DNA from: Amphiscolops sp. MND2022
Taxonomy: Eukaryota
Assembly (NCBI GenBank): GCA_964187785.1
Contig: OZ076409.1
Coordinates: 19,096,001-19,160,000 of the forward strand
Length of the DNA stretch: 64,000 nucleotides
Direction of reading: 5' to 3'
In this document: piece by piece, positions 3,745-25,084 of the stretch
Position numbering within the stretch: position 1 is the stretch's first letter
How the letters are laid out: each line of letters opens with the position of its first letter
Notes under the pieces: generated by a model
Databases searched by the model: none
The model's input: only the letters and a program-made list of their open reading frames with translations
Told to the model about the DNA's origin: nothing
Position numbers and translations under genes: made by a program

Positions 3745-4224
3745 GTGAAGTTGCAGACGAAATATCACTGCTGGGAGCGCAAATGGGTTCCTTCAAAAGC
3801 ACGAACAACAACAAGTTTCGAATATGGGCCTTGCTTATGGCCGGCCGCATCATTGGAAGCAATGATGATGCAACTTGAATCTTTTGGAAAATGGAACAGA
3901 GAAGAAGTTAGACAACTCGAAGTCAATGATTTGGTTTGGATTGTGGATGAGAATGTGAGAAGAGCTCTCTACAAGATGGCTAGAGTTTTGAAAGTCTATC
4001 ATGAAAGCGATGGGCGAATGATATCAGCGCTGCTGAAAACTGAAGATGAAAAACTCAGAAAACCAGTAGTAAAACTGGCACCCATGTTTTTTGAAAGTTT
4101 TTTTCGGAGAAAAACAGGGCTGGCATTGTTGGCGCCAGTCAATTGCAAGCTCAAAAACTCAGATTCGAAAGTGACTGACGAAACTTATTACTCAAAACAC
4201 TTAGAAACTTTATCAAAATTTTAG
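3745..4224 (+). pseudogene. BEL/Pao integrase C-terminal (DUF5641-like) remnant
   Basis: LEVNDLVWIVDENVRRALYKMARVLKVY..DGRMISALLKT....RKPVVKLAPM, which matches the end of the pol at 35477-37297. Confidence 0.8.
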
Positions 4225-4275
4225 TTGGAAATTTACAAGTTTCAGCAGAAATAGGCCTGAGTCAAAAAGGCCACA
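4127..4275 (+). repeat. Probable short 3' LTR of the decayed BEL/Pao element
   Basis: Begins TGTTGG after a purine-rich/gggc tract and ends GGCCACA. The partner LTR is not in the window, so this is unconfirmed. Confidence 0.4.
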
Positions 4276-4619
4276 CCCCTTTTTTTCAGAAGCACTCGCT
4301 CAGTCACCCTGAAACTTGGCAAAATGACCTGGGTCAGGCTCCATGAAAACCCAATTTTGATGGACCAATTATCTTGTGATTTTCTCAAATGACCTTGAAC
4401 GAAAAGTAACTCTGTTGAAATTATGATACTTACATTGAGTAAAAATAACTTCTAGCCCATCTAACCAACATGCGAAAACCACCACTTTGTTCGTTTACTT
4501 AGCCAATACCTTCATATTATGACTTAAATGTCAATCATTCATACAACATATTTTGATGAATATTTACTGTAGAATTGTACACGATATGTATACCATTATT
4601 AGATAGAGATTTTCTCCAC

Positions 4620-5191
4620 TTAATAGCTATAGTCAATTTGGGTCTCAGGACCGCGAGACTAATTAACTTTTCACATCTTTACATTTTTTCGCTAGATTCA
4701 GAGCGAACATGTAGCTACTCTCATAGTTGGAGTCCTGGAGCATGTAAAGATACAGAGCGGGAAGTATGTGCGTCGATTTCTGCTTCCTGCAATCTTTTCC
4801 CGGCTTCTCTTGTTTGGCCTTGACGACGCAAATATAGTCCTTTGTGACTGCATCATATCTTCTCCGCATCGTTTCCGGTCTAGCAAGCGTTTCTCTCCCC
4901 TTTGCCAGTCTCCTGGTCTCCGGGCTTTCATTTCTTCTTCGAATAATTTTCATTATCTCCCGGAAGGCTCCCCATTGATTTACATTTTCTTGGTTCGTTT
5001 CGTTGTCAGTGATGGCGATGTTTGAATTTGAACTGATTTTCGCGGTGCTAATATCGGACTACCTGGATGTAGTATTCTCTTCTGCGATGATATTGTTCAC
5101 GTGGTTTTTGTTCTGGAATGTTTTCTTTGATTGTGTTTGGTTCTTCTTTTGCTCAATTTCAATCCGGTTCTCCCTTCGTTCCTTTTCGCAT
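4620..5191 (-). pseudogene. Distal (post-RNase H) remnant of the Gypsy element at 22126-25084, separated from it by the giant DNA transposon
   Basis: Frameshifted IMKIIRRRNESPETRRLAKGRETLARPETMRRRYD..QRTIFASSRPNKRSREKIA segment, recognised from memory of related Gypsy families. It becomes contiguous with the 22126 flank when 5194-22123 and one TA are removed. Confidence 0.6.
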
Positions 5192-5221
5192 TACAGTGCC
5201 AAAAGTGGGTATTTTGATTAT

Positions 5222-5510
5222 TTGCAGTGGATTTCGCTGGACGGCAGTTTTGGAAAGCGTGCAGCGTAATCCACTAACAAATGCTATTACGTTGCAGTCG
5301 ATTCCACTCTTTTGGCGATTTTTCTGCAGCGAATTTCGCTGCAAATCATTGGATTCCACTATCAAATACCTTAAACATTCGGATCTTGCAGTGGATTCCA
5401 CAAAACACTGCCGTGGATTCCACTGAACGCTGCAGTGGACTCCACCGATGGCCGCAGTGGAATCCACTATCAGCTGCAGTGGACTCCACTGCAGTGTTTT
5501 AGTGGAATTC
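5222..5510. repeat. Left subterminal array of the palindromic motif (G)CAGTGGAWTCCAC(TG)
   Basis: About ten exact or degenerate copies, e.g. gcagtggattccac, gccgtggattccactg, gcagtggactccac, gcagtggaatccact. Confidence 0.85.
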
Positions 5511-5830
5511 ACTGAATTATTTCACCTAATTATTTCCACTGCAGTATTTAGTGGAATTCACTGAATTATTTCACTGAATTATTTCACTGAATGATTTCAC
5601 TGAATTATTTCACTGAATTATTTCACCTAATTATTTCACTGAATTATTTCAATACCAACTCACACTGCAGTGTTTTAGTGGAATTCACTGAATTATTTCA
5701 CCTAATTATTTCCACTGCAGTATTTAGTGGAATTCACTGACTTATTTCACTGAATTATTTCACTGAATTATTTCACTGAATTATTTCACTGAATTATTTC
5801 ACCTAATTATTTCACTGAATTATTTCAATA
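5497..5830. repeat. 13-bp minisatellite (TTTCACTGAATTA)n within a ~176-bp higher-order duplication
   Basis: Repeated tttcactgaatta units. The block cactgcagtgttttagtggaattcactg occurs at ~5488 and ~5663. Confidence 0.9.
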
Positions 5831-6556
5831 CCAACTCACAAAAACTATCAACCATCGAAAAAAAGTGGAGTTCATGTACTTCAGTGCCCTTCCTTCACGA
5901 GTTCAGTTTTGAAATGAGAAACTTTTTCAGAATCAGCAAGTGTCACAAAAAGAAGGATTCAGAATTTCTTCTTTTGACAAATTATTCCCAGTGAGTTTTT
6001 ACCGCAATCACGCAACGTTTTACCGCTTTAGTTTGACTGTTATTTTTTCATACTTTGATTGAATCATAGTGGGCATCAAAATTTCACACACAGTTCCTGC
6101 TAGTTACCTAGTTATACACACATACCTTTAGGTATAACTAGCTTTCATTTTTCATTTACCTCATGGTGGATACCAAAATTTGCTTCCGGAAAACTCACTT
6201 CAAGCATACTGCTGACTGCAACGGAGACCTTATCAATTCTACATCAAATTCCACACACAGCTCTTTCGTGTATTTTAGGTACAACTAGTTCCCATTTTTC
6301 AAATACCTCAAGGCGGATACCAAAATTTCAAAATGAATTACAAGCCGAATGATGAATGGAAATCTAAATTCGAGTGAAGAAGACGTTGCAAGGGAAAATG
6401 TAATTTACGGTGTTTTGTTTCGATATTACGAAAAACAAACATTTGTACTTGTAGCAATCAGTGTTTACATACAAGTGAAATTATAACGAAAGTAGTGAAA
6501 AATTGAATACACAACAAAGAAAAGTGTTTTGTAAACGGAGTTTTCTGACGATTCCA

Positions 6557-7274
6557 TCAGTCAAACATCGGTTGAGAATCTTCATGGAAAAGTTGATTGG
6601 CAATGGGGTCATTGTAATCAAAACGGAGCTGCTCAAATGGTAGAATATCACGTGTAGCTCGGAACACTACAATCTTTTTGCCATTTTGAAACAATTCGAT
6701 CACTGTTGGCTTCATATTGGCGCCGTTTGATTTCAACTGCAAGACGTCCAGGGCAGCGAATATTTGGGTGAAGGGGGCAAATCTCTTTGGAGGCATCAAT
6801 TATTCTTCTAGAGGCGCCACTTTTAACCTCCAGAACAAACTCTTGCTCCACACCTTCTTTCCCGAGGACTTGGCTCAATGACATGTTTAAATACACCTCG
6901 CCATGGTAATCCATCAAAATGTCGTCCTTTGAAAATTTCTGTGTGGCAATCACACATCTCCCAAATTTTGACATTTTGGCCAAACAGATTCCAGGCCACA
7001 GCTGCGTCTCACATCGTTGCGACAACAAAATTTGTTCTTCATATGGTAAATTATGAGCAAGTCCAGCATACCGAATTCCACTGCTCTCATGTACCTGCGA
7101 AGATTTTCTAATTGACTGGTTGTTAGAGAGAATCAATAACTGCGCTGTCACTTTTTTCACGTCCTGGTTTTTATCCTCCAGCGAAGTCCACTTTTGTCGC
7201 TGAAAAAATGCCGCCACTCTTGACTCAAGACAGTTAATAGCAACTTTCCCAGAAACGTGTTCAAAGTATAGCAA
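6557..7274 (-). pseudogene. SET-domain lysine methyltransferase (PR-Set7/SETD8-like), frameshifted
   Basis: FGRCVIATQKFSKDDILMDYHGEV...EFVLEV...RIIDAS...CPGRLA [frameshift] LKSNGANMKPTVIELFQNGKKIVVFRATRDILPFEQLRFDYND. The conserved NH(S) after GRLA is missing at the frameshift (~6735). Confidence 0.8.
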
Positions 7275-8532
7275 GGCCCTGGCTGACTGACTGGCGAGTG
7301 TACCTTTGCTGGTCTTGGCGGGCGCGAACAGCGTTTCTCACATCGTCTTTGTCGAAACCTTCAACATTCGAAAGAACCAAATTCACTGCATGTTTCAGCT
7401 TGGTGATTTTGAAGCATGGGTCATTGGAAAGGGGCATCAGTTCCGCGACTTTACCTTTCAATGTATATTGATCTTTTGTTTCTGCTTTTTTGCTTGAAAT
7501 GAAAAGATCTACAACAGATTTAACGCGGAAGTCCGTTTTACCAATTGAATTCACAAAGAATAACTCTGTATTAATTGGACGTTTGTCGGCCTTTTCGTAT
7601 CGAACAATGGCTAACTTGGTGTGATTGGTAACAAAAAACGGCCGAATTTGTGTAAAATATACTTTCAATGCTTCAACAAGACTTCCGGATACTTTGTGAA
7701 TTGTTCGTTCCGATGATCCAATTGTGTGTTCCACACAGAGATTGAAGGCGTCGCTCAGTGAATCTTCTTCGTGATCCATCACGATTTGCACAACTGAGTG
7801 TACCGAGACATTCCGGATGGAACTTTCAAGCATAGGTGGTACCGCATACATGAACAGGGTTGTAATTATGCATCGAAAGAGTTCCAACTTAGCTTTTTGT
7901 ACTAGTCCCACATTTTCTTTCGATGCCTGGACATGTTTAGCCAACGTTCTTTCGTACATGTTGTTGTCAAAGTGAGTAACTTTCGCACATTTGGATTGAC
8001 TGTTACTTGAATTATCCTCACTGCACTGGGAGTCAAATGGACGCTTCCCGGGTGGCTCATTGAGCTGGGGTGGCACACTGGTCACGGGCACATTGCTCTG
8101 GGGTGGCAAGTTCTGGTGAGGCAGTGAATTCTGTGACGGGGGGTCCTGTTGTAGTGGGTTCTCAGGCGGCAAAGGAATTTGGGTCAGATTGTGAGCATTC
8201 TGCAGTAATTGTTCTAGATCTTCTGTGGGCGTATGTTCAATCAAGTGCTCGATCCCATCAGAGTTCATCATTCTAGTTGCACTGAAGAAACCCTCCTCGG
8301 GGGCCGTTGGAATTGGCGAATAAGATGGCGGACAAAACATGGATGCATTACTGAGGAAATCTGGCGGCACATTCCAGTCGGTAGATCGTCGATGTAACTG
8401 TTGCACAGGTGTAGAAGTCTGGGATGGACACAAGCGTGTTGATTCTAGATTTGAAATTTTGTCAGGCATGGTAGAAGTATTCATGAAACTAGGAGAACAA
8501 ATCTTGACAGTGGATTTCGCTGAATGAATCAA
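7261..8532 (-). CDS. Pro/Gln-rich N-terminus plus a divergent, probably inactive tyrosine-recombinase-like domain; likely originally fused to the downstream SET domain
   Basis: Pattern SIRNVSV...LCVEHTIG...KVSGSLVEALKVYFTQIRPFF...LFFVNSIGK...KITKLKHAV resembles eukaryotic (Crypton-like) YR folds. Catalytic R/K/R positions appear substituted. Its stop overlaps the SET ORF in another frame. Confidence 0.5.
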   Translation of the reverse strand: MIHSAKSTVKICSPSFMNTSTMPDKISNLESTRLCPSQTSTPVQQLHRRSTDWNVPPDFLSNASMFCPPSYSPIPTAPEEGFFSATRMMNSDGIEHLIEHTPTEDLEQLLQNAHNLTQIPLPPENPLQQDPPSQNSLPHQNLPPQSNVPVTSVPPQLNEPPGKRPFDSQCSEDNSSNSQSKCAKVTHFDNNMYERTLAKHVQASKENVGLVQKAKLELFRCIITTLFMYAVPPMLESSIRNVSVHSVVQIVMDHEEDSLSDAFNLCVEHTIGSSERTIHKVSGSLVEALKVYFTQIRPFFVTNHTKLAIVRYEKADKRPINTELFFVNSIGKTDFRVKSVVDLFISSKKAETKDQYTLKGKVAELMPLSNDPCFKITKLKHAVNLVLSNVEGFDKDDVRNAVRARQDQQRYTRQSVSQGLAIL

Positions 8533-8929
8533 AATTATGATGTAAAAAGAAATGACAATTTTGAAATTATTTTTTTCGATAAAGCGTCGTTTTCATAATT
8601 AGTAGAGACTCAATTTCACCCATTGCACTTCACAGTGACTAAATTAATTATTTCAACCAGTAAGTGTTATCAGGTTTATTACGGTGGTTGAGTCCTTTCG
8701 GGACTCAAATGCCTATTCAAATATATTAACACTCACGAGATGAGTTTAAAAACTAATTGCTAGTAATAAATTCTTTTATTGAGCGCTCAAAACGGAATGA
8801 CACCTTCTTTTAGGATCATCACCGTAAAATTACCCTCTTTTTCGCGCAGTTTATGTGTTGACACCTGGTAATCACTTTGCACAATTTTGAACAGTTTATT
8901 CTCAGAGTAAGCTCAAGTATTTCTTTCTG

Positions 8930-9574
8930 TTGAAGTCAACTTTAATCTCCACTACAATGCTTCTGCAAACTTTTAAATTAAATGAAATTGTCCAAATCCT
9001 CGACCCTGAAACCTATATTTGGGAGTCTGCGAAGATAATAGCGTTCATAAGTGATTGGTCTCTGAAAATCCAATGGATCGACTGGAACAATCGTCTGCAG
9101 AAAATTGAAATTCCCCTAGATTTGCGTCCTGACCCAAACAGGTGGAACATTAGAAAAGCACGACATTCGCAACCAGTCATGTCGAAAAAGCGTTCTAAAC
9201 CCCTGTCGTATAACCCAAACCGACTGCAAAAAAACGAGCCTGTGACATTCTGGCTACCCGATTGTGAGTGTGTGAAGCATTGTTTTATTGATTCCCATGG
9301 AAAAATCAAAACGGGAACCATTTCGACGAATGACCCATTTAGCCATGAGTGTGTCGTGGAGATGGACAAAATGTTAAGATTTATCCCCTATTGCTATTTG
9401 AAGAACTCAGTGGAAGATACCCATGTTCACGATGAGAAAGCAGAAGACGACGAGGAAGCTGAAGAGACGAGGCAGGAACATCGGGAAGAACCAAAACAGA
9501 AAAGACCTAAAACACAAATACCAGAAATAGACTTTTCAGCATTGATACCGCAAACCGATGTTGGTGTCAAATAA
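8930..9574 (+). CDS. Hypothetical protein with possible tandem Tudor/Agenet-like beta-barrels and an acidic/basic tail
   Basis: FKLNEIVQILDPETYIWESAKIIAFISDWSLKIQWIDW is a Tudor-like pattern (W..A.I.....+.V.W..W). A second similar unit follows. Pattern recognition only. Confidence 0.4.
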   Translation: MKSTLISTTMLLQTFKLNEIVQILDPETYIWESAKIIAFISDWSLKIQWIDWNNRLQKIEIPLDLRPDPNRWNIRKARHSQPVMSKKRSKPLSYNPNRLQKNEPVTFWLPDCECVKHCFIDSHGKIKTGTISTNDPFSHECVVEMDKMLRFIPYCYLKNSVEDTHVHDEKAEDDEEAEETRQEHREEPKQKRPKTQIPEIDFSALIPQTDVGVK

Positions 9575-9625
9575 AGCTATGTACCATGTGTCAATGGAAT
9601 TTGTCAAAAAGGATCCATTATTACT

Positions 9626-10270
9626 TTGTCTGGAATGGAATTCAAAGTGGAGGATTTGTACTACAGTGCACAGAAGTTGAAACCATTTGCAATAATGGTA
9701 TCCATGGACGACGAAGACTGCGAACTTAGGATGCCAGTAAACAATTGTTCGTTAAAGATCTCGGACTATTTAAAAAACGTGGAAATCAATTATTTCACTC
9801 TTGATAATGATGTTGATAGAACGTTTGCAGTCTTTTCTGCAATTAAGAGATGTGTTGGTTTGTCGTTCAAGAAGTCATCAACTGTGACAAACATGGTACC
9901 TGCAACAGAGCTCACAAAACGTGTCTGTGGGTTCAAGTCGGACTCAAGCAGAGAAAACGTGAAATTTTCAATAGAAGTTGAAACGGGAAACTTGGGAAGC
10001 TACAACAGCTTAGATTTTATATTGGGCCAGAACTGGGACATCATTCCAGATACGCTTGAAGATGAGCCTGCAACATTGATCAAGACTTTGAAATTCACGG
10101 AACATCGCGACTTTATGATGTTCTCACTCAGGTGCCACATAACTACAACTGAAGGCCACTACAAAAAAATGGAGACCATCGACAAAGCTTCAGGCAAAAC
10201 ATTCAACATGCGCACATTGAATACTTTGTTGACCAATAGGGGTAGTAATTTTGGTATCCACCGTGAGTAA
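9626..10270 (+). CDS. Hypothetical protein (cargo, unknown; possibly the second part of the 8930 gene)
   Basis: 214-codon open frame with protein-like composition, 52 bp downstream of the 8930-9574 ORF and followed by an AT-rich region with AATAAA. Confidence 0.4.
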   Translation: MSGMEFKVEDLYYSAQKLKPFAIMVSMDDEDCELRMPVNNCSLKISDYLKNVEINYFTLDNDVDRTFAVFSAIKRCVGLSFKKSSTVTNMVPATELTKRVCGFKSDSSRENVKFSIEVETGNLGSYNSLDFILGQNWDIIPDTLEDEPATLIKTLKFTEHRDFMMFSLRCHITTTEGHYKKMETIDKASGKTFNMRTLNTLLTNRGSNFGIHRE

Positions 10271-10589
10271 ATGTGCAAATACATCTTCAAAAATCGTCTG
10301 TTTTGTTATCCTAAATAAATTCAATGGTATTTTTGTTGGTATTGCACTGATAAAATTCTTTTTCTTAATTCGATTGTTACAGTAATATTGTCCTTGTTAC
10401 AATAAATGATGTCAAAAAACTTTTTTCACTTGCGACTACTTTCTTGAAAAATTCTCCCCAGTAGATAATTTCAAATTGTTATTCAGAACTGTTCCCGATA
10501 CGTAATAATGCTTTGTTACTTTGGTTTTTGCACATTCAGATTTTTGGTACAAACGTTCTACTAAACCTAAATGCATCTAGCCTGAAACA

Positions 10590-11050
10590 GTAAGTGGATT
10601 TGACTAACGTATAGCAATACATTGACAGTGGATTCCACAAACAAATGCTTAAACATTTGCAAACCAATACAAAAGGGGTACATTCAGTAAAGCATTAGTT
10701 CTAAATAGACTCAAATTTCTATTGCAGTGGATTCCACTATTCTGGTAAGTGTTCTTCATCCTGCGAAAAGCGATATGCGGAATTGACTAACATATACCAA
10801 TACATTGACAGTGGATTCCACAAACAAATGCTTAAACATTTGCAAACCAATCCAAAAGGGGTATATTCAGTAAATTATCAGTTCTAAATAGACTCAAGTT
10901 TCTATTGTAGTGGATTCCATTATTCTGGAAAAAATTCTTCATCCTGCGAAAAGCGATATGCGGAATCGACAGACGTATTTCAATACATTAAAAATGAGTT
11001 CTACAAACTAATGCTCGAACATTTGCAAATCAATATAAAGGAGTAAATTC
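10590..11050 (+). repeat. 183-bp tandem array (~2.5 units) containing CAGTGGATTCCAC motifs
   Basis: attgacagtggattccacaaacaaatgc recurs at 10621 and 10804. It is the reverse complement of the 16454-17220 array. Confidence 0.9.
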
Positions 11051-11104
11051 TAAACTAAATTCTGTTCAATTCTAAACTAAAAAGTTTGATAAAAAAACAA
11101 TAAA

Positions 11105-14100
11105 CTATAAAAGTTTGCTCCAGGCAGCTTCTTTATTTACCAGAGTGAATTTTTCTCGAGGCTTCTTTTGCAATGTAGGCTCGTTGCAAAGGCCAGCTTG
11201 TAGAGAGCAATTTTCTTGCTCAAAAACTCTTTGAAAGTGTCGCAGCTTGCAATGAGAGGCGGCAGGGTGTCTAAACAGATCATAACGATGGGGTTTGTGA
11301 TTTTCTTTCAACAGATACAATTCCAAGGTTTTCCGATAGACTAGTGGTCAAATATCTATGAAAGGTTTAACATCAAGATTTCGAAAATTATGACATCAAC
11401 AATTGCTGCTTCTAACCTATATCGAAGACGTCCTCCTCCTTTTGATAGATGCTGCGGTCACGTTTCCTTCCCTTCTGTGACTTTTCGGGGATTTCGGCCT
11501 GGTATGTAGGCCCAATTCGGACTTCCTTCACAGTCCCTGTGAAGGCGTACACTGGCCCTTTTGGGTCGCAATAGGGCTTCTCCGGACCCCTCAATCCCAG
11601 CTGATTCAAATTGAAAGCTGGATACACCTGGTAACAAAAGCCATTGACAATGATGAATAGAGCGAATTCAATGAGAAATGTGCAAAATTACAATTACATT
11701 TGAAAAAAATACGTTTAAATTGTTAGGCAGTTCGAAACGAGAACCATTTAAATCCGTAGTTCACAACCCAGTCCGTGGAAGAGATTAGTTATTTTCTACA
11801 ATATCTACATTTCTACATTATCAGTTACCATTCAAAATTAACAAACATTGATTACCATTTTGATGGCGTCGAGCTCACTGCTGATCTGCTCTTTCAGAAG
11901 AGTCAGTTGTGGGCTGGAGAAGAGGGGGAGTTTGGAGATTGAGTTTTCGCTGGAGTTGTCGTATTTTAAACTGTAGCACAGCATACACACGAACAAATCC
12001 GGGAAAAACCTCTTCGTCGTCTATTTCCTGCTGACTGGCGTTGAGGTGACTGTCCACAATCAGAGGGAAATGTGTGACAGCGAGGAAGTTGGAGGCAAAA
12101 GCAATGGCGTCTCCCTTTGTTGCCACTATATGTGGCCAGCGTGCAGGCAAAACGAGGATGTCGCCTGCTTCCACCACAAGTTTGTGGACCCCACCTGTCA
12201 GGGCCTTCAGGTTCCCGAAGGAAGTTGGTCTAAATAAAAACAAATTAGTATAAATTTAAACGAAACAACTGGTTCAATGATTTTGAATCATGTGCATGAT
12301 TGATAATGTGCTCTTCGCAAAATGATGACTTTGAGATGAGTATGTTTTCAGTGCATGATCTGAGTACATTTACCTTTTTGTGGGGATATTGCTCCACTCC
12401 TCAAAGAGCTGCAAATTTGAGCTTGTCGGCTCCACCAGCCAGAAGGTCTTCTGTCCTCGGGCGACAGTATAAAAGGCAGTCGTGCTGGAGAAGTCGACAT
12501 GCCACGGCGTGAGACACTGGTCGTTTGAGACCAGCAAATAGTTGGATGTAGCCTCGGTGAAGTGCCCTGCTGCATCCACACACTCATCTGCCAGATGATC
12601 GGCCGCACAGTGTCTGACGAAATCCGGTACTTGGAAAAACTAAACCAAAACGACAAAACCTCAGCAAACGGTTTCAGAACAAAGACTCCTTACAGTGGTC
12701 GCCAATTTCAACATCCATTTAGTTGCTAAAAATTTGAACAATAGAAGGGTGCATCATGTATTTCACTGACTTTTGGCACTGTAAAGACATCAAATTCAAT
12801 GAGTAATTTTTTCCAATATGAGCCCTTTCAAGATATGATAAAAAAGCTTACATTCCGTTCGAGTGCAATGTCAATGACATTGACAGGAAATGTTCCCGTG
12901 GGTGCTGCTGAGGGCCCCGCTCGCTGCTCGTCCAGGTACTCTCTCACTGTTAAAGACCTGACCTAAAATTCAAAAACATATATTTCAAGCATACTCCTTT
13001 GAAATTACTTTACCAATGTTTAGATAACTTACAGTGAAATCCACTGCCAACGATGACTTAGTGGATACTAAATCTCAATATGTTTTGATTCAACGTATAC
13101 AATAAATTTTATCACTAATGGTTAAAACGCTATACTTGAATGAAGTTTGTGAAATTTGAAAAATACAAAGAATGGCGGGATATGTTCACCTGTTGTTCTT
13201 GTGGCAGCCGTGATGACTTTGCAGCAAGCTTCGCTGCAGGATTAGCTAAGTGCTGCAGCAAGAACTCCACTTGGTGGACGAAGTCCTCAGCGGGCAAAAC
13301 TGGGAGCTTCAAACCTCGCGAGTTCATAGCCCCGTTCTTCCATAATATCGGCTGGCCACGAGAGAGTGCTTTCAAGACCATGCCGTTTTCGTCTTCTTGC
13401 TGATTTTCCCACCTGCAGCAGTTCCACGGCTCCTCTGATAGCGGCATGTCCTCTAGGTACTTTACGAAGAGACTTGACCCTTCGTACGCCCGTCGACTAG
13501 GCTCGCTCGTCATTGCCATGTGGCTTTCTTTGTGGAGGGGAAATCGTTCCAGGTGTCTCTGTAGGGAGTCACTCCGGGCAAATTCCTCACTACAGGATGT
13601 GCAAGGATATTTCTTGCTGGGGTTGGCAGTTCCTATAAAATTTTATTGAACAAAATGTAAACTAACGAACGCAGATTATATAAAACTTGAAGACTATACT
13701 TATGTTCGTTTTATGTTAGTATTATGTTCGTATTTATTTGTATCTAAATCCTAAACTGTCACACAAAGAAAAAATATAAATTTGAGGCTTTACTGGTTTG
13801 TATTCATGTCTTTGTGATATAAGTTTTTCACTATTTTTTCCATGAAAAATGTGGTGGGGGGAATGAAAAGAGCCGCAAATAGTTGACATAGTTGATCTAC
13901 TTACTGTACTTTCTTTCATTTTGGGGTATGTCTGTCGTGCAGTACCTCGCTTTCTCGATGTGCCGCTTGAGCGTTACAAGGGTGGCGAAGACCCTCTTGC
14001 AACGGGGACAGGCTTTGTTTTGCGGCTGCTTTGTACCGCAGGTTTTTTGGTGCCTCTCAAAATTCGTGCGGCGGTTCGACTTGTACGAACAGTTGGGGCA

Positions 14101-14112
14101 GCTGTATTCAGT
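11105..14112 (-). CDS. Spliced gene: 3x C2H2 zinc finger + JmjC histone demethylase (KDM2/KDM7-like) + ELM2-like motif
   Basis: Phase-compatible GT-AG exons 14112-13905, 13632-13190, 12962-12852, 12639-12374 and 12229-~11855, then ~11627-11415 and ~11340-11105. ZnFs CPNC..H, CPRC..H, CTSC..H. JmjC TPWHVDFSSTTAFYTVARGQKTFWLVEPT and AGDILVLPARWPHIVATKGDAIAFASNFL with an intact HxD...H triad. ELM2-like EVRIGPTYQAEIP. A stop or frameshift near 11875 may uncouple the ELM2 exons. Confidence 0.85.
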
Positions 14113-14377
14113 CTGTAGAAACAAAAACAACATTATAGTTTATCCTCGAAGCGTCTTACATGTAAACGCCAAAATTTCAAACCGCTAAAAGATATTACAA
14201 CCTCCCATTTCAAATAAAGACCTGTTTTTCCAATCAGAAAAAAGAGGAAACGAACAAGCAAAAAAAAAAACAGAACATGCCAAACCACAAATGAATTTAG
14301 AACGCCATCATTTTAAAATGGAGATAAATATCTCGGTTGTTTAATAATATGGTTAAATAAAAACAAACAAATTACAA

Positions 14378-14450
14378 CGCGCTTTGGCCGAGTGGTAAGC
14401 AACTAGACTATGAAGCCAAAGATCGTGGGTTCGAATCTCTATCGTGTCGG
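14378..14450 (+). ncRNA. tRNA-like Pol III element (degenerate tRNA or SINE head)
   Basis: A box TGGCCGAGTGGTAAG and B box GGTTCGAATC at tRNA spacing. Acceptor and T stems pair poorly, so it is not a canonical tRNA. Confidence 0.45.
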
Positions 14451-14697
14451 CATTTTACAGTCGACTTTTTACACCCTATGTTACCTCAGAAAAACTGAGT
14501 ATACCTAATTTTTCAAATAATATGTAAAAACTTTGATCTTGCTATCGCGAAATTTAATTTGATTGTCTATGTTAACAACAACTTTTAATCTTTTCTTCAT
14601 ATCGTATCATTGCTTTCTGATTTCATCTGACAACAGTTGAGTATCAAAACGAATTAGTCTTTGACATGGGTATTCGATTGCTTTCCCTTAAAACGAG

Positions 14698-14985
14698 ATA
14701 GAGATCGAATTCGGGTCTTTTCTGTTATTCCCCCACTCTCTTCTTTAAAAATTATCTCCAATATTTTTTTGTCAGGATAAGAATCGAGGTATTTGACTCA
14801 CTCTCTAATGATTCACTTCTTAATGATGAACACCTATCAACATTTCAAAAATTAGGACAAGATTTGTTGTATAAGATTGACTTCATATTGATTCACTTCT
14901 TAGTGATTTGAGTGGGATGGGAGTAAACTTCTGGGAGGGGCGGAGGGTTTGTAGCAGAAAAGACCCACGAATTCGATAACTATAT
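14698..14985. mobile_element. Small MITE-like inverted-repeat element
   Basis: atcgaattcgggtcttttctg (~14704) is inverted relative to cagaaaagacccacgaattcgat (~14955). TSD not resolved. Confidence 0.4.
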
Positions 14986-15119
14986 TTCACTCCCAGATTT
15001 CTCTGCAAATTGTGAACAGTTTTTCACTCAGGTCTGTTCAAAGGATGGCAGTTCAAACTCAGATTCGTTTTTACTACTCGGGGGAAACCAAAAATTTTGT
15101 ATGAAAATTCAAGAGCAGT

Positions 15120-15560
15120 TTTGCTGACAGTGTGTACAGTTTTTTTTTAACTCAGATTTTTCCACTACTCACGGTGGATACAAAAAGTTTCTATACAAAT
15201 GCAGGACAATACTTTACTCACCGTGTGTACCAAAAACGAGTACAATAATTTACTCACGGTAAGTACCAAAACCAAAGCGGTGTTTCTTAAAACTGAGTTT
15301 TTTTACTCACGGTGGATACTCGAATTTTTCCAAATGAAACTAACGTTTTTGCTGACAGTGTGTACAATTTTTTTTCTAACTAAAGTTTTTTCCACTACTC
15401 ACGGTGGATACAAAAATTTTCTATACAAATGCAGGATAATACTTTACTCACGGTGGATACCAAAAACGAGTACAATAACTTACTCACGGTAAGTACCAAA
15501 ACCAAAGCTGTGTGTATTAAAACAGTTTTTTTATACTCACAGTGGATATTCATTTTTTCC
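15120..15560. repeat. 228-bp tandem duplication carrying ~8 copies of TACTCACGGT
   Basis: gctgacagtgtgtaca at 15123 and 15351. Internal tactcacggtggatac/taag repeats. Confidence 0.85.
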
Positions 15561-16453
15561 AAATAAAACTGAAATTTTTACTTCGTATCCCAAATTGTAG
15601 ATGTGAAACATTCTTAAGAAAGAAACTAACCATTGTGGAATGAGGAAGCAGACAACGTTTAGGGAATCTAGAATTAGACAAAGGTAAGAGAAGGGCTTAA
15701 CGAATGTATCTTGAAATAAACAAAACTAGCAAGCTGTTGAATTGAAAGGTCGAACGACGAAGAATCAATTTCCTAGATCCACTTCGGCAGCCAATCAAAA
15801 TCGAATTAGCATTCTCGGTTCCGTAAACTTATGTAACAGTTTTGTTTTATACCACTACATTTGCACACAAGTTTACTAAATTGACACTTTCGTCAGGTTC
15901 ATTCCAATTGTGCTGAGTGAACGAATAGTGTTGAACAAATGAATGGTAAACAAAATATTGAAGCGAATTGAAAAATGGAAAGAGAGCAAACTCCTTCTAG
16001 AATACAAAATGACTCGTTTTAACCTACCAAAAATTTTGAAAACGCACTTTAGAAAAATAAAAGAAAATAAAAGTTCAATAAGTGTCAATTGAATGAACTT
16101 TCTTGATATAAATTCAATTTTCAATTCTCACGGACTAAAAGTGGAGTCATCATCTGTCATTTCTTCGGGCTCTGAAACTTCCTCAAAAAGAAATCAACTG
16201 CAACATCCTCTAAAATCATGCCAAATTTTTGATTCCGAAAAAAACTGTCTTCGTTTTATGTTCATCGTATAAGCCCCTCCCCAAACTTTCGACCACCAAA
16301 AACTCAAAAAAGGGGGAGGGGGCGTCTTTGCCGGAATACACGGTATGTTGATTTTGATCATTAACTTTGTTCAAGATTTCTTTCGTCACGACTATGAGGG
16401 AGTTAATTGTCAATTTTATTTAATGTAGCCTGATTTGATTTTTTTTGCTGGAT

Positions 16454-17220
16454 ATACTAATAATTCACTGAATGTACCCCTTTTGGATTGGTTTGCAAAT
16501 TTTTAAGCATTTGTTTGTGGAATCCACTGTCAATGTATTGGTATATGTTAGTCAATTCCGCATATCGCTTTTCGCAGGATGAAGAATACTTTCCAGAATA
16601 GTGGAATCCACTGCAATAGAAACTTGAGTCTATTTAGAACTAATAATTCACTGAATGTACCCCTTTTGAATTGGTTTGCAAATGATTAAGCATTTGTTTG
16701 TGGAATCCACTGTCAATGTATTGGTATATGTTAGTCAATTCCGCATATCGCTTTTCGCAGGATGAAGAATACTTTCCAGAATAGTGGAATCCACTGCAAT
16801 AGAAACTTGAGTCTATTTAGAACTAATAATTCACTGAATGTACCCCTTTTGAATTGGTTTGCAAATGTTTAAGCATTTGTTTGTGGAATCCACTGTCAAT
16901 GTATTGGTATATGTTAGTCAATTCCGCATATCGCTTTTCGCAGGATGAAGAATACTTTCCAGAATAGTGGAATCCACCGCAATAGAAACTTGAGACTATT
17001 TAGAACTAATATTTCACTGAATGTACCCCTTTTGAATTGGGTTGCAAATGTTTAAGCATTTGTTTGTGGAATCCACTGTCAATGTATTGGTATATGTTAG
17101 TCAATTTCGCATTTCGCTTTTCGCAGGATGAAGAACACTTTCCAGAATAGTGGAATCCGCTGCAATAAAGTCTATTTAGAACTAACGCTTTACTGAATGT
17201 ACCCCTTTTGAATTGGTTAA
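16454..17220 (-). repeat. 183-bp tandem array (4 units), inverted relative to the 10590-11050 array
   Basis: aatgtacccctttt at 16471, 16654, 16837, 17020 and 17196. Near-identical units, each with two gtggaatccac motifs. Confidence 0.95.
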
Positions 17221-17375
17221 AATGTACCCCTTTTAAAATGCTTAAGATTTCTTGTCTAGGTTTCCGAGAAAAAAGTGTTCAAAAGCTAAATTAGTACCAC
17301 AAGCAAAGATTAAAACATATGTCTTCGAAATCATTTATTGTAACAAGCATTTGCAGAAATCAGAGTAAAAGTCGA

Positions 17376-20300
17376 TCATCTGCTGGAGTTTTGTTGTTTC
17401 ACTAGGCCGTTTCGGTATCTTTTCAAGGCCACAAGGGCTGACGTATTCGCTATTGATTTGTTATCATCTATTTGATCCATCAAGAGTGGTCGCATGTCAT
17501 TAATTTTCATCGAGTTGATCAAGAGTCCAGGCCTTATAATATAACTTTCAGGGTCCAGAATGACGTTACTTTTCATCATTTCGAGTACGTATTCAACAGT
17601 GATGAACACCCCCCGACGCAAATCTTTTGCAGGCCAAAGCTGCAGGAGACAACTTATTTTTTGTTGAACACTTTTCATCTTCTCTGCTTTCGGCGTCTGT
17701 TGACAACTCGCTTGCGGTACAATGTCTATGGAGCTTCAGTTTTCTTCTCATGGCTTCCAATTGATGTTTATCGCCGGTCGCGTTTATTAGGTCCTCTTCG
17801 TCTTTGACAATAACGTAAAAATTCAAGATATTTGAATGGGATTTCATTATGTTCTCCGCGTTTTCTTTCTCATAAACGACACCTCCCATTTCGGAAATTC
17901 TATCTTCGAGGAAATCCTGTGTGAGCCCACGCTTGAACCTACCTACAATTGTAAATGTCAATCCTCGTAGAAGGTCGCAAAATTCTCTTTTTTCGCCAAC
18001 GGCAAGGCAGGGTAGCGCCAAGGGAGTTCTACAAATGTCTAGATAAGTTCTGGCACCCTCTAAAGTCTCTTCAGTCGTGAGTGTTTTTCTTACATGTTCA
18101 ATGACATTGGATCTTTTTTTTTCGGAACTTGTTGAAGAAATATCCAGGAACCGGCAAAACGAAAATGCAGTATCCAGAAATAATGGATCTTGATGGTAAA
18201 TGGAGCCACCGCCTCTCATAGTTCGGGATTGAAAATTTCTGTTCGCATTGTGGTTCGATTTTTCCAAGCCTTCGCAGAGGTGATTCCATGGCTTCTCGAT
18301 GTGTCCGCTCTCCACTAGTTGGGCTATCAAGGGAAGCTTGAGCTTGTATGGTGACAGCCCCTTTCGCCCGAAGAGGAGCAAATTGATTTGAAAGTATGTT
18401 TCAGCCCATCGTTTGTAAGTGTCGACATCAAATGTTCCCTGAGTTCTCAACAGAATAGCACACTGGTTCAAACTTTGTCGTAGAAGTTCACAAGCGTCAT
18501 ATATTGATATAAATCTTTCTTCGTTTCTTGGATTTATGGGGTCCCGTTTGTCAACTAAATGTGGATGTAAAGACTTAAGTACTTTTGCAGCCCCCAAGTT
18601 GTATCCATCCTCACTTCCAAGTAGTATCTCGGTCGTCCAAACTCCGTCATAAAGGTTCGTGATTGTCCCAAATTGAGCACTTCTAAGTTCTTCTGTTTCA
18701 GCTATAACTGTAAGTGCATTCGACCCCGCTAATGACAGTGGTCCTACTGTTCCTGGGGTTTTACCTACGTTCTTGTGGGTGATATTGAACTGAAAAGACG
18801 GTCTTTTAGCTTCTCGGCTGGTCAAATTTTTCTCAAAGCGCTGTATGCTCAAAGCTTCCAAGGGATATTTGTCGTTAATTACCTTCTGAGCCACTCTTCT
18901 AATATCATTCTCAGTGCAACGCGTTATCATGTGTGTAGCGTCTGGGCAGATTGTTCTGACATCGATTATGCTTGCTAATGCTTCTCTAGGAACATGTTGT
19001 CTGAATGGGATCTTCAAAGATGTTCGTCTTCCATCGACATCTGAGAAGCGGGTGGGGAGGAAATTTTCATCGCATACATATATCGGAAGTTGTGACGGAT
19101 GAGAACTTGAACGTTCAGTTGAAATTCCAAGGACCAAACGCGTCAAGAACGGGCTGTCACCACTGTATGTAATTTCAACGCCCAAGGCTTGTAGTTCTTT
19201 TGTCTGGCGGTATAGCCATCCAGATTCTTGCTTACCCAGGATAGACGGACCAAAGTTTTGTTCCATTGCATATCGGCCATCTTTGCCACGATATGATGCA
19301 AAACAGAAGACAGCTTTCGATGATTGACTGCTAACTGTGGTGTTCAAAATTCTGAATGCTAGACGCGTTACCTCAACCCCCCTATTTCGCAACCGTCACC
19401 CCAAATGTCAATTTTAAGGCCTTCAAGATTGGTTTTTTGCAGTAAAACTAATGACGCAAACGTCACTGCTTTCAGTAAACTGACTCGAAATCCAGAATAG
19501 GTTCCCTCAGGCTCGCAAATTGTAACAAACAATTTCATTATGAGGCTAGTAGCTCTTTTGATGTGACGAATTGACGGTACTAGGCTGCCACCACCTAAAC
19601 CAACCGAAACTAGCCTTTGTCGAATTGCATTGAGGATATCTTCCATGTTGCCAGTTTTCATTTTGATTGAAAGTTCGTACCTGAAGCATTCGGAGGAGCC
19701 TCTGTCCTCCAAAAGACCCGTGAACAAGTCTCGAATGTGATTACCGCTTGCGCTTCTTTTTCGCCATATGCTACGTTTCTGATGCTGTTCTTTGAGAATT
19801 GTGGCTAATCCGTGAATAGGTATACCATGCATTCTAGCAAAATTCAGGACTTTGGACCAAAAAGTTTTCCTATTAGTTCTGTGCCACCTTTTGAGTTGTA
19901 ATTGCGTAACATTCATATCTGATCGTTGCTGGTCTTGTGAATTATCAATTTCTGGTGTCTTCTGTAGCACTCTCTCTTCTTGGAATTTTACTTCAAGGGG
20001 TGTTTCTTCAACCATCTCATGTTGAGAAAAAATTTATCATTTGTAAAAGTACCGACATCGGGAAAAAAACTGGTGTTGAAATATTTTGCAACGAGTTTTC
20101 TTCTCTTCTCGTTCCAAGGTAAGTCTTTATAGCCCCGCAGAATTAGAAGTTTCATTATTTTCGACGCAAGAAAAACAGATCCCTGGGGCTGTCCTTTAAT
20201 TGGTAATTTTCGAATAAGATCGTCTGTCTTCAGAGTGGTCCCTACGACCATTTCAGCAACGATTGAAGTAAGTTTCCGTTGACGATTTTGTAACGTGTTT

Positions 20301-20413
20301 CCTGATATAAAGTCTAGTATTTCGGAATCTATGAATTCTTTCCCATCATCCAGTGATATATTGAACTTTTCGAATTCTGACATTTCTGAACTTTTAGACA
20401 ATGAGTGTGTCAA
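17376..20413 (-). CDS. RAG1/Transib-like DDE transposase with C-terminal BRCT-like domain (~1000 aa, three frameshifts)
   Basis: Overlapping ORFs 19988-20413, 19368-20015, 17593-19392 and 17376-17678 join in order. Motifs WGDG (D1), YSGDSPFL (D2), CPDATHMITR (DxxH), LSPYKLKL and CEGLEKSNH (E) parallel RAG1 D600/D708/DALH/TNYFH/E962. BRCT-like LRGLTFTIVGRF...LEDRISEMGGVV...FITVEYVLE...LDPESY. Two of the frameshifts sit in G6 runs. Confidence 0.65.
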
Positions 20414-21700
20414 TGGCGTGTCAATGAGCTTTTAGAAATTGAGCGTGTCAATGGTGTATCAAATCGTCGATAATGATGAAGCCGAAAAACTAACAAAATC
20501 ATATTCTTTGCGTTTCAGTTTCCCTCCTTTTGCGTCTTCTGATGCGCCTCAATTTTAGCCTCAACTTCAAATAAATTTATTCTTGCAACATTTTTCTCAC
20601 AGTATTACCGCACGCTGTTTAAATAATTCTTCAACACCTGTTTGAAACTATTTGATTGCACGCGTTGAACTAAAACTACAAGGTTATATGTGCGCTCACT
20701 AGTAGGTGATAAAATTAGGCGTGATTGTTCCCAAAAAACTATGTGGAAGGATTTTTCTTGGCAAAAGTTTACTAGCATTTCCAGTAGTCATGTAATTTGA
20801 AGTTAGGGAACCATTACATATTTTTGTGTAGTATTAGGGAAAATTGCTTTACGTCCCCAAAATATCATTATCTCTACGGAGTCCTTTTTTTTCTATCCTG
20901 GGGCATACAACCGTATTTTTCACTAATTTTTCACTTATTTTTTTTGTCTCCACCGTGAGTTGGTTATCAACCGTGAGTCGATTGACATTGTATAGAAGAT
21001 TTGCCAGCAAATGATTCTGTTGTTATTCGACCGTGAGTTGACAGTGAACACCGTTCAAGCACTACAAGTTCTTGGCAAAAAACGGTGAAGAAAAGAAAAT
21101 TTTTTCAATTGTAAAAAACTACATATTATCATGACAAAAAGAAAGACGTAAACAAAATTTTTAACAAAATTTTTATAATAAGGAGAGAACTCTATAATAA
21201 AAGAGAAGAGAGGAACGCATCAGGTGTGAGTTGTAACCCTTGAAGTTGTAAACATTGCAACCATAAAGAGTGATTTTGAAGTTCCCACCATTCGCCGATT
21301 GCTTCACAGATTTGTATGAATTTGACCTGAAACAAACAAAAACAAAAACTTTTTCCTTTTCCCTACACTTTTCAAGATGTTGTTTTTGCAATTAAAGTAA
21401 GATTCGGATAATCGAATATCGGGTAAATATCGAAATCAAAATTTCGGGTAAACGAATAAAAATCCCCGACAGTATAGGTCATACTAGCATGTTTTCGTTT
21501 TATCGAATATTTCGCTGAATCGAAAATTTTTCGCCGTTCCTGCATAATAAATTAATAATAAATTAATAGTAATAAATATATATAATTTGTTAAAACAGGT
21601 GTGGGGGGACAAAACTAAAGGGCCAAAAGGTTTGTTTCAGCATGAAAAAATGAAAGAAGAATATTAGAAAGTTATTATTTATGTTTCATTGATCTGTCCT

Positions 21701-22080
21701 TTCGCTGAAACTTGCAGTGGATTCCACTTCAGCTTACAGTGAATTCAACTTTGGCTTACAGTCAATTCCACTCGTTTTGCAGTCAATTCCACAAGTTGAA
21801 AAGTGGAATCGGCTGTAGGCCAAAGTGGAATCGACTGTAAGCCAAAGTGGAATCCACTGTAAGCTGAAGTGGAATCCACTGCAAGTTTCAGCGAATTTCG
21901 CTGAAAGTTGAAATAAGCTGACGCGATTGGTTCAATCGGTTGGCAGTGAAAAGCAGTGGATTTCGGTGCACACATTTTTGTACATTAGCTAGATATGTTA
22001 GTGGAATCCAAAACAGGCAACAGCGGAATCCACTGAAAATCAGTGAAATACATGTTTAAAAGTATGTCAGTGGATTTCGG
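21701..22080. repeat. Right subterminal CAGTGGAWTCCACTG array, including a ~195-bp imperfect palindrome (21701-21895)
   Basis: ttcgctgaaacttgcagtggattccacttcagcttacagtg at 21701 is mirrored by cactgtaagctgaagtggaatccactgcaagtttcagcgaa ending at 21895. More motif copies continue to ~22080. Confidence 0.9.
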
Positions 22081-22125
22081 TGACTTAATAGCACAAAAGT
22101 GTGTTAACCCACTTTTGGCACAGTA

Positions 22126-25084
22126 ATGCGGTCTATTCTGTTCTTGAATTTCATTGGTTCTCGAACAAAGAGCCATATTTTGCGTTCAATGCGGCGTGTT
22201 CGGTAAGGATGTTGATTACATATTCGTCGTATTTGTCTTCTATGGCGGTTCCCGATACCGAATTTCTGCTGAGAAAATCGGTAAACTTTAAGGTACTGCC
22301 GGCCGGCAATATGTTGAACTGCCATGTCAAAATGAACCAATCTATCCAGCCACCAGGGTAGCCTTCCGCTGTAACGCTGATTGCTTCGGTTGCGTTTTAT
22401 TAATGGTTCGGATGCTTGGTGGTCTGTGTACAAGTGTACTTTGTTTCGTAAAGGTAAAATCAGAATTTTTCTAATCCCCAACCTACTGCTAGCAGTTCCA
22501 ATTCATCGATAGAAAAACTTTTTTCTGTATCATTCAGATATCTGCTACCAAATGCAATCGGTTTTATGTTTCCGCTGTCTTGTTTTTGCCAAAGTGTAAT
22601 TCCGAGTCCGATGTTACTTGCGTTCGTTGTGACCAAGTTTTCTTTGTCTTCAGCGTAGTGTCCCAAGCATGGGTTTCCGGTTATAGCATCCGCTTTGTTT
22701 GCGTTAAATCTTCCTGATCCTTTTCTCATTTCCATGGTTGATTTTTTTCAACAATTTTCTGAGTCTGTCGGTCTTCTCAAAAAGCTTCGGAAGAACTTTT
22801 GCCAAATGTTGTACTGCACCCAGGAAAGATTTCATTTCCTTTGTGTTGTTTGGCGGCTTCAACTTCAATACTGCTTCCACTTTTTCTTCATTCGGTTTTA
22901 TTCCGTTCTCATGATTTTCGTGTCCCAGCCACGTTTTTTGTTTCGATAAAAAATCCGAGTTACCACTATTATGTCACCTAGCAACGCCGGTGTACAGTAT
23001 TCTCTTGTTCGGTCTGTTTTGAAATATTGTGGGTATATCGGCCAGCTCGTAAAACCCCTTTTTTAATTGATAGTTACCACTGAATTTTGCACCGGTGATT
23101 GCGAATACGCATTGTCGGTTTGTTTCTTTCGATAATTTCATTTGCACGTAGGCGTAGTCTCAATCAATTTTTGAAATGAATAATTGAGCTGTTCGGTCTC
23201 GGGTAATTTCTACCGATATCTGATTCAATAATTCCTCCAAATTCGGCATGAGTGGTCTCCGCTTTATACAGCTATCGTTTAGTTTTTGGCAATCAAGTGC
23301 TATTTTAACCGATTTATCGTTTTCACCGTTATTACTACCGGTGACACAAAACTGTCCTCATCCACGTTGATTATTTCTTTAACTTTTCGAGGTGTCCAGC
23401 TTTTATCAATTTCTCCAATTCTTTCCGGGTGTAGCGGGAAGCATCTAGCTTTTTGTTTTACTGGGTAGTGTCCCGGTTACAGCTGTATAATTATTTCCGT
23501 GTCTTTTATTGTTCGGTTGTTCTCGAACAATTTCGGAAATTTGTTGATTATTCTCTCTTTTTCTGATTGGTTAATCTCGGCCAATTGATTTCTTCCGATT
23601 GGTAATTTAAATCGTTTCCTCCAGTCCAATCCCAAGAGTGGTGTTATAACCGTTCTTTCGGTAATCAGGATCTCCATCTTCTGTTTGTTATTTTCGTATT
23701 CTATGTTCACTGGTTTCTTCCCCCAGAATTTCACTTCATTTTTTATTAACGTCCGGGTTTCGGTTCGTTCTTTTCTGTATTTCGGTTTGTTTGACTATTT
23801 GTTCATCCAAAGGCAATATTGTTACCGGTCACTCGGTATCAATTATGATTTTTTTGTAGCCCGATTATTTTCATTTTCGCTGTGTAATGTTTCTGTTTTT
23901 CTTCGATTTTCTTGATTTCTTCTATATGGTGTACTTTCACCCGATTCGCTGATGGATTCATTTGGTTCGTTCACTACTTCGTCGGTAAGTTTTTTCACTG
24001 TTCCAATGTTGTTTTGACTCTGCCTGCATGCCCTTGCGAGGTGTCCTTTTATTCCGCAGTTGTAACAATTCGACTCCGATGACGGACATTTGTGTGATGG
24101 GTTCCAAATCGGGTTGTTGCAAAATCTGCATGGTCGGCTTCCGTTAAATTTTGTTTTTGGTCTAGCACCGAATTTTTCCATTCTTTGTATCGTTTCTTTT
24201 TTGATCAGTTGTTTTTCTTTTATTGTAATCAAAGCTTCGGGTATTGTGTTCTTTTTGTTTTCCTTCACATATGTATTTTGTTTCAGCAGTAGAATTCCTT
24301 TTTTCTTTTCGAGGGTTTTTTTCTTCATCATCTTGTCCCGTAAGTTTTTATCGGTGATCGCCGTCATATACTACTTTGAAATCATTAATTCTTCGGCTGA
24401 TACGGTGTTAAAGTTGCGTTGTTTCTCGATTTCGATTAGTCTTCTCCAGAACTCTTCCGATGTTTCATTTTCCGATTGTTTGGCCCAAAAGAAATCGCCT
24501 CGGTTGTGGTATATGTTACCCTTCGGTAGGTAGTGTTCGGTATATATCCGGATTAGGTCTCTTCTTTTTATGGTGTCCGGTTCCGTTTTATATTCGGCTC
24601 CGGTTATTTGATAGAGAGTTTTTGGCCCACTCCCCAAAAAAAATAATATTGAATTGCCGTTTTTTCCCGGTCTATTCGGTATCCGTTATATCTTCTCCTT
24701 CCAATAATGGTTAATGTCAATTTTGTGTTCCCGTTTCGTAAACTGCCGGAATCTTTCTAGCAACTGCCTCGGTGTGAATTTTGTGTTTCCGTCTGATGCT
24801 TTTGCTTCCAAGTTCGGTACGATGTTTTTCTCTGTCATGGTTTCGGTTCAAGAAATTTCAATTTGGTTAAGAACTTGCTGATTGCGCCATGTTGTATTCT
24901 AGAGTTGTATGATAAAACAGTTTTCTAAAATAGCTTCTTTCTTTATCGAACATATAGCATCGTAGCAAAACATAAAGTGACATAATAAAGTTTTATATCG
25001 AATGTTTATTGTTTGTTACTATGGCAGGTAATTGTCTATGACCGAAACTCGGTAGAGGTTATATGTCTAGTCCGGTATTTGACA
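22126..25084 (-). mobile_element. Decayed Gypsy LTR retrotransposon (5' LTR, PBS, gag, protease and RNase H remnants; RT largely deleted)
   Basis: LTR 24890-25084 (TGT...ACA). PBS TGGCGCAATCAGCAAG at 24874-24889 (minus strand). Gag from ~24838 with knuckles CRFC..H.C and CYNCGIKGHLARAC. RNase H TNASNIGLGITLWQ...IAFGSRYLNDTEKSFSIDELELLAV and YTDHQA. Confidence 0.85.

Follow-up and report, generated by a model that had tools for sequence, protein, structure and literature searches.

What is a histone demethylase-type gene doing inside a transposon? The question is raised by a 64,000-nucleotide stretch of the genome of Amphiscolops sp. MND2022 (GenBank assembly GCA_964187785.1, contig OZ076409.1, positions 19,096,001 to 19,160,000), which we call the window and whose positions we use as coordinates throughout. 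On its minus strand lies a gene that joins zinc fingers, a JmjC domain of the KDM2/7 type and an ELM2-specific motif. The gene is carried by a DNA transposon, whose family we call W, and it is not the KDM2/7 gene of the host. Judging from the encoded sequence, we lean slightly towards the view that it encodes a demethylase of mono- and dimethylated lysine that is aimed by its fingers, opposes silencing by the host and keeps the element expressed.

The gene and its domains

The gene has seven exon blocks with GT-AG boundaries, running from 14112 down to about 11138 (Table 1). The original prediction had five consecutive exons splicing in phase, and exons 1 to 5 do have the AG/GT ends and the phase this takes. 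An in-frame ATG at 14133, 21 nt upstream of 14112, may be the start of the gene, and a further exon upstream of mapped exon 1 is not excluded. When the exons are scanned one by one against Pfam, zf-C2H2 and JmjC/Cupin_8 fall below their curated cut-offs and ELM2 lies above its own. What had been called three C2H2 fingers are two C2HC fingers and one C2H2 finger with non-standard linkers. The ELM2-like motif stands in part: the N-terminal ELM2-specific motif (EIRVGxxYQAxI) is there, but the match covers only Pfam positions 1-28 of 53 (E 7e-5) and is out of frame in the window copy. No SANT or Myb match was found in exons 6 and 7 (Pfam, E up to 1), and no CXXC, PHD, F-box or LRR in the seven exons (Pfam). 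Fingers and an ELM2-specific motif on a KDM2/7-type JmjC domain are not a host architecture, as had been proposed.

The kinship of the catalytic part is clear from its closest relatives of known structure. The top PDB sequence matches of exon 4 are KDM2A (E 5e-11) and PHF8 (E 4e-10); that of exon 5 is the C. elegans KDM7 homolog, with KDM7A also among its matches. Alignment with KDM2A identifies the HxD...H metal triad, and both the triad and the GQKTFW motif are kept as originally described. The KDM2A pocket residues Y199, L201, H212, D214, F215, Y222, H284 and N298 have identical counterparts, by alignment and by the spacing of 14 residues after the second triad histidine (His2); I144 of that pocket lies outside the alignment. 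The lysine of GQKTFW aligns with K229 of KDM2A, which we take to be a 2-oxoglutarate ligand and not a residue of the substrate pocket. A database protein (P0001) is 79% identical over 64% of exon 4; it reads the sequence of exons 4 and 5 in one frame and then continues in the family frame.

A transposon carries the gene

The JmjC gene is cargo of a DNA transposon bounded by terminal inverted repeats and target site duplications. We mapped the carrier with twenty further copies, each with 20 kb of context. The element begins with CATTAC and ends with GTAATG, and a 2-bp target duplication flanks every one of the 16 copies whose two ends could be located (21 examined). Three of these 16 share flanks, which leaves 14 independent insertions. 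Copies L007, L013 and L019 (G000:C10:35.39-35.53 Mb) have the same flanks, so they represent one insertion that was duplicated together with its surroundings. The 21-mer terminal repeat has 236 exact matches in the genome and its reversed control has none. Some of these matches face each other in pairs about 210-450 bp apart, resembling miniature non-autonomous derivatives. Five related families, labelled F93, F96, F98, F123 and G140, are treated below; CATTAC or GTAATG termini recur in the related families wherever ends were mapped, and the 2-bp duplication with CA..TG ends is found in F96 and F123 too.

The host has a gene of its own

The Pfam JHD model finds one locus only in this genome, of 5 candidates, and this is the host gene at G000:C4:53030169. 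Its JmjC exon is single-copy, the next matches dropping to about 50%, and it is 34% identical to exon 4 of the element gene. In quick trees of 62 rows, with support from the Shimodaira-Hasegawa-like approximate likelihood ratio test (SH-aLRT) only, a branch with an SH-aLRT of 99 sets off the element-type proteins, and the host gene groups with PHD-bearing proteins of the KDM7 type. The stem of the element clade measures 1.14 changes per column. Approximately unbiased (AU) tests were run on 34 rows, 28 of the 62 having been dropped, including three of the four long-branch rows. They reject the pairing of the W gene with the host gene (p=2.5e-6), while joining the whole element clade to the host gene stays allowed (p=0.57). 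The W gene is separate from the host KDM2/7 orthologue; grouping with it was named in the original prediction as an outcome that would speak against the idea. Given the long branches, the donor may have been either KDM2 or KDM7. A search of the genome for CXXC gave no match, but its controls were equally silent, so it says nothing about a host KDM2.

A broken copy of a constrained family

It is important to separate the window copy from its family. A DNA search of the genome returned 54 candidates, of which 40 matches were scored (86-100% identity), and 30 loci, the window copy included, were fetched for gene comparison. The window copy had been thought to carry the full finger-JmjC-ELM2 frame, and it does not: exon 5 has 374 nt where 25 of the 29 other copies have 385, a private lesion shared by 0/29 of them, and the spliced frame ends past the JmjC domain and ahead of the ELM2 exon. 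With a 385-nt exon 5 the frame runs on through exons 6 and 7 to 585 codons. In six of the 30 copies every splice site is kept and the frame stays open for 580 codons or more. Four of them (L009, L010, L013, L014) have the full 585 codons; of the other two, L011 ends one codon too soon and the last exon of L016 is changed. The triad has lasted well among the copies (first His in 30/30, Asp in 28/30, His2 in 29/30). In the window copy all four genes of the element are broken.

Retention of the motifs had been read as a sign of recent constraint. We cannot agree, as the window copy differs from its sisters by only about 1% (0.9% is the median exon divergence) and is frameshifted; constraint becomes visible between families only. 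The 30 copies hold 237 non-synonymous, 13 nonsense and 83 synonymous private changes (pN/pS 0.87). The ratio is 0.74 for changes found in two copies and 0.31 for those in three or more (16 vs 15; Fisher p=0.0096). Between families, dN/dS is 0.08-0.11 for F93-F98, 0.13 for W-F98a and 0.26 for F96-F123, dS being saturated in other pairs; values that involve the old copies X72 and X58 (0.68 and 0.38 against L010; pairs 0.25-0.68) were set aside because the aligned stretches cross frameshifts. The neutral decay that the original prediction had named as a danger is thus real for the private changes, but between families selection is purifying. Constraint acts on the transposing lineages and neutral drift follows insertion, which is the usual pattern for transposons. 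CpG transitions are modestly in excess (40/170 vs 100/740 sites, p=0.002), which is compatible with some DNA methylation in the host.

Related families and a second class of element

A protein search with exon 4 gave 1137 first-look candidates, of which 150 matches were scored, and two copies were sampled from each of the five related families. Exon 4 identity to W is 51-54% in F93, F96, F98 and F123, and 42% in G140. The six diverged families, W included, combine transposase, SET and finger-JmjC genes in variable order; one of the two sampled contexts of F93 showed the JmjC gene only. Fingers are attached to the JmjC domain in every family examined, intron positions around exon 4 recur in F93, F96, F98 and F123, and the T, HxD, Y and K of the core are invariant in 10/10 aligned family representatives. 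Four of the six (W, F93, F96, F98) have the ELM2 motif, but F123 and G140 gave no sign of it, nor did the recombinase-type elements described below; it is the sole Pfam match in 4 of 5 exons scanned, two of these below cut-off. A profile search reached 1461 database proteins (E at most 0.001); many of the 150 best of these are unnamed and show the signature of the element type. Next to an F96 element lies one more divergent JmjC gene (L098:329-1156), its HxD intact.

A finger-JmjC gene is also found in an element of some 21 kb that is unrelated to these and has many nearly identical copies; there a one-finger JmjC gene is accompanied by what we take from motifs to be SET-like and recombinase-like open reading frames (ORFs). 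The recombinase-like ORF has no Pfam name. This element lies at G000:C1:47186064-47206919 (L112-L114), with another copy on G000:C2 (L115-L117), and ends in a (CTA)n tract. Its gene content suggests that the JmjC module has been exchanged between DDE transposons and recombinase-type elements; monophyly of the two classes stays allowed in the AU test (p=0.40).

What would the protein do?

We propose that the zinc-finger JmjC protein would strip mono- and dimethyl marks from histone lysines on the chromatin of the element. Its pocket predicts Fe(II)/2-oxoglutarate demethylase activity on me1/me2 lysines: the pocket of KDM2A is common to PHF8 and restricts the enzyme to lower methylation states, according to sections of PMC4197961. 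The fingers would take over targeting from the PHD or CXXC module and recruit the enzyme, in trans, to the DNA of the element. The same sections describe the JmjC domains of PHF8 and KIAA1718 as promiscuous and aimed by an outside module (PMC4197961), which fits such a swap. Together with the SETD8-like writer and the predicted Tudor reader encoded next to it (Table 1), and with the ELM2-specific motif as a predicted contact for HDAC1/2, the JmjC protein may form one chromatin kit. The net effect would be against silencing, with H3K9me2/H3K27me2 as the favoured substrates by analogy to KDM7/PHF8. An anti-silencing role had already been suggested in the original prediction, and it is still plausible.

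Several facts weigh against this proposal. The substrate is unreadable from the pocket, which is common to KDM2A (H3K36) and PHF8, and removal of H3K36me2 or H4K20me1 would not be anti-silencing. By analogy with co-repressors, an HDAC1-binding ELM2-specific motif points toward repression, and only 4/6 families have the motif. The finger linkers are non-canonical, and no consistent match of finger to repeat is seen across the families tested. A full JmjC frame survives in only 4/30 copies and an unbroken transposase frame in 0/21, so family W may now be inactive.

The question of targeting deserves a closer look, as the fingers had been expected to read CAGTGGAWTCCAC or ACTCACGGT and neither has consistent support across families. 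The motif GTGGAHTCCAC is confined to W (0/5 other families tested) and includes subterminal clusters, which could be transposase sites. Three families agree in the Arg/Asn/Arg helix positions of finger 1. Enrichment of CGTGAG is seen in three of the six DDE families (W, F96, F123), but the motif is absent from F93 although the finger-1 helix is the same (F93 was taken as a fixed 19.5-kb span, its ends being unmapped). The repeats of the families do not track the finger helices, and we have dropped the finger-to-motif match as support for targeting.

The best of the alternatives, though we consider it unlikely, is that the element restrains itself. The fingers would bind the element, ELM2 would recruit HDAC1/2 and the JmjC domain would erase a mark of active chromatin (H3K36me2, for instance), which would keep transposition within limits or set its timing. 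In co-repressors the ELM2-specific motif occupies a groove on HDAC1, as parts of PMC3710971 describe, and 4/6 families have kept the motif. The match of exon 4 to KDM2A, which erases H3K36me2, is also slightly stronger than that to PHF8, but the top scores of exon 5 go to the C. elegans KDM7 homolog and to KDM7A. The motif is missing from two families and from the recombinase-type elements, and the lack of a SANT match after it makes stable recruitment doubtful; the motif without SANT may serve for HDAC recruitment or as a decoy.

We regard it as rather improbable that the kit shapes chromatin for transposition and break repair, with a SETD8-like writer, a PHF8-like eraser and a 53BP1-like Tudor reader managing H4K20 methylation at excision or target sites and the BRCT domain providing a link to repair. 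PHF8 is able to erase H4K20me1, the SET domain matches SETD8/KMT5A, the tandem Tudor matches include 53BP1 and the transposase model has a BRCT match. However, the Tudor barrels match only generically (Z about 7), with similar scores for SETDB1, Agenet, UHRF1 and FMRP, and a related finger-JmjC gene with a SET-like companion is found in an element that uses a different, recombinase-like enzyme.

Still harder to credit is a JmjC domain whose substrate is not a histone but, say, the transposase of the element after methylation by the SET protein, or a JmjC domain that is mainly a scaffold. The fast evolution of the clade, with its long stem, would suit this, as would the fact that the Pfam JHD model finds only the host gene among its candidates. 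The methyl-lysine pocket is fully conserved, however, and fingers of a DNA-binding type occur in every family examined. Finally, a passive hitch-hiker, a captured host fragment decaying neutrally, would account for the nearly neutral private mutations and the broken window copy, but purifying selection between families makes it very improbable, and the same goes for the host KDM2/7 orthologue itself, given the separate single-copy host gene and the AU result.

Comparison with known systems

Returning to the anti-silencing demethylase, we can ask how it compares with what has been described. The metal ligands and methyl-lysine pocket residues of KDM2A (JHDM1A) and of the KDM7 family (PHF8, KDM7A) are identical in the element protein. 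It differs from these enzymes in having C2HC/C2H2 fingers and an ELM2-specific motif in place of CXXC, PHD, F-box and LRR, in the lack of a Pfam JHD match, in forming a separate long-branched clade and in being multi-copy and transposon-borne. It shares the ELM2-specific motif with the ELM2-SANT co-repressors, but the SANT domain that follows ELM2 in those was not found in exons 6 and 7.

Element-borne enzymes of epigenetic marks are known already. Fungal DNA transposons carry TET/JBP and oomycete HarbingerS and MuDR elements carry SET, for which an escape from silencing has been proposed in portions of PMC12730594. As in the present case, complete DNA transposons carry the enzyme and the cargo occurs in more than one class of element (PMC12730594, same portions); here the enzyme is of the histone demethylase type, the genome is that of an animal and SET and Tudor-like genes travel along. 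The word JmjC occurs 0 times in PMC12730594. The endogenized giant viruses of Amoebidium have intron-containing KDM4-like JmjC genes, with heterochromatin evasion proposed in parts of PMC11244446. These too are intron-containing JmjC genes kept by a genomic parasite, but they belong to the KDM4 subfamily, are JmjC-only and are viral, unlike a KDM2/7-type gene with fingers in a cut-and-paste transposon. The VANC proteins of Arabidopsis VANDAL elements are element-encoded, sequence-specific anti-silencing factors (sections of PMC12730594). VANC is our working model, from which the element protein differs in bringing a catalytic domain of its own and in that its targeting to specific sequences is only proposed.

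In the literature searched, to which Repbase Reports, subscription journals and supplements did not belong, no JmjC protein or histone demethylase is described as cargo of an animal DNA transposon. Element-encoded anti-silencing has been described in plants (VANC) and proposed for fungi (TET/JBP) and endogenized giant viruses (KDM4-like). The six families, which are under purifying selection and differ in their repeats and finger helices, offer a natural series in which to ask whether an animal transposon can direct a chromatin eraser to its own DNA. The compact finger-JmjC fusion would be a natural sequence-targeted epigenome editor. There is a practical side as well: when this genome is annotated, the JmjC copies of the elements would make its KDM genes seem too numerous.

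The transposase and the other cargo

The transposase of the element is, by structural modelling, of the RAG1/Transib fold. The AlphaFold2 model of a relative (P0009, pLDDT 72) matches RAG1 (Foldseek E 5e-6; VIA Z 13.7, root-mean-square deviation 5.5, 422 aligned) and also HzTransib (Z 9.6), and a BRCT match is present. A sequence search of the PDB gave 0 matches, and no named homolog is found among 28 database matches. The CA..TG ends and 2-bp duplication are shared with the CMCT transposons, whose target duplications measure 2-5 bp, and the CATCA..TGATG of PlavakaB resembles CATTAC..GTAATG (sections of PMC12730594). The C(2)C and H(3-4)H motifs are common to all CMCT members listed there (PMC12730594), but 0/10 relatives of the element transposase have both; two have CxxC and one has H(3)H, though elsewhere in the protein. 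A further difference from CMCT is the added BRCT domain. Because the two motifs are missing at the expected places, we file the transposon as CMCT-like only.

Taking these results together with the cargo suggests a wider picture, one that we find attractive without quite being persuaded of it. In an unclassified RAG1/Transib-fold lineage of animal transposons, lacking the usual zinc motifs, a full histone methylation kit (SETD8-like writer, Tudor reader and finger-aimed KDM2/7-type eraser with an HDAC hook) might rewrite the element's own chromatin sequence-specifically, with the eraser passed to or from an unrelated recombinase-type element and about a thousand JmjC copies in one genome.

The SET domain is closest to SETD8/KMT5A among eukaryotic structures (E 4e-5). 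The N-terminal domain of this gene might be tyrosine-recombinase-like; this was not confirmed, the pairwise comparison with the recombinase-like ORF of the 21-kb element giving E 0.057 and Pfam no name. SET-fusion look-alikes of similar length occur in chordates (protein atlas, scores under 0.9). The Tudor-like gene is kept in all six families and has no Pfam name. Its model, built from sister copy L035, finds its matches at Z about 7, fold level only; these include the tandem Tudor of 53BP1, and SETDB1, Agenet, UHRF1 and FMRP score alike.

Table 1. Features of the family W element in the window (position 1 is the first letter of the window).
Feature	Position	Strand	Remarks
Cut-and-paste DNA transposon, 16.9 kb, decayed copy	5189..22128	.	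other copies align over 5189-22128, flanks differ
Left terminal inverted repeat	5189..5209	+	preceded by CG target duplication at 5187-5188
Gene with unassigned N-terminal domain and SETD8/KMT5A-like SET domain	6557..8484	-	680-codon frame in 5/20 other copies; split in window copy
437-aa protein with two or three predicted Tudor/SH3-like barrels	8957..10270	+	internal stop at 9572-9574 in window copy
183-bp tandem array with GTGGAWTCCAC	10574..11039	+	inverted partner array at 16456-17218
JmjC gene, exon 7	11138..11270	-	short C-terminal exon up to family stop codon
JmjC gene, exon 6	11417..11627	-	ELM2-specific motif; out of frame in window copy, in frame in sister copies
JmjC gene, exon 5	11856..12229	-	His2 (12132), pocket Asn (12090); private net loss of 11 nt near 11930-11937; stop 11877-11875
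JmjC gene, exon 4	12374..12639	-	JmjC core: T, HxD (12501-12493), F, Y, K (12450)
JmjC gene, exon 3	12852..12962	-	N-terminal portion of JmjC region
JmjC gene, exon 2	13190..13632	-	C2H2 finger 13603-13532; region conserved across families before JmjC core
JmjC gene, exon 1 as mapped	13905..14112	-	two C2HC fingers, 14100-14038 and 14010-13939
ACTCACGGT repeat cluster upstream of JmjC gene	15140..15563	+	
DDE transposase with C-terminal BRCT domain	17376..20383	-	frameshifted in window copy; one 1003-codon frame in family F96
Right terminal inverted repeat	22108..22128	-	followed by CG duplication at 22129-22130

Other features of the window

Upstream of the JmjC gene, at about 14375-14450, lies a stretch also present in sister copies that we presume to be tRNA-like; ARAGORN calls no tRNA there. 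The element seems to have inserted into a decayed Gypsy-like retroelement (22129-24600 and 4200-5188), its right flank matching the Gypsy pol of the window (E 3e-5). The ORFs at 30911-37297, 879-4224 and 48018-54967 we take, from their motifs, to belong to BEL/Pao-like and Gypsy-like retrotransposons. The BEL/Pao elements and the KDM7-type gene point to the genome of an animal. ORFs of 400, 686 and 321 codons at 55207-61341 are probably part of another DNA element, and one of them has a cysteine/histidine motif that is presumably BED-finger-like.

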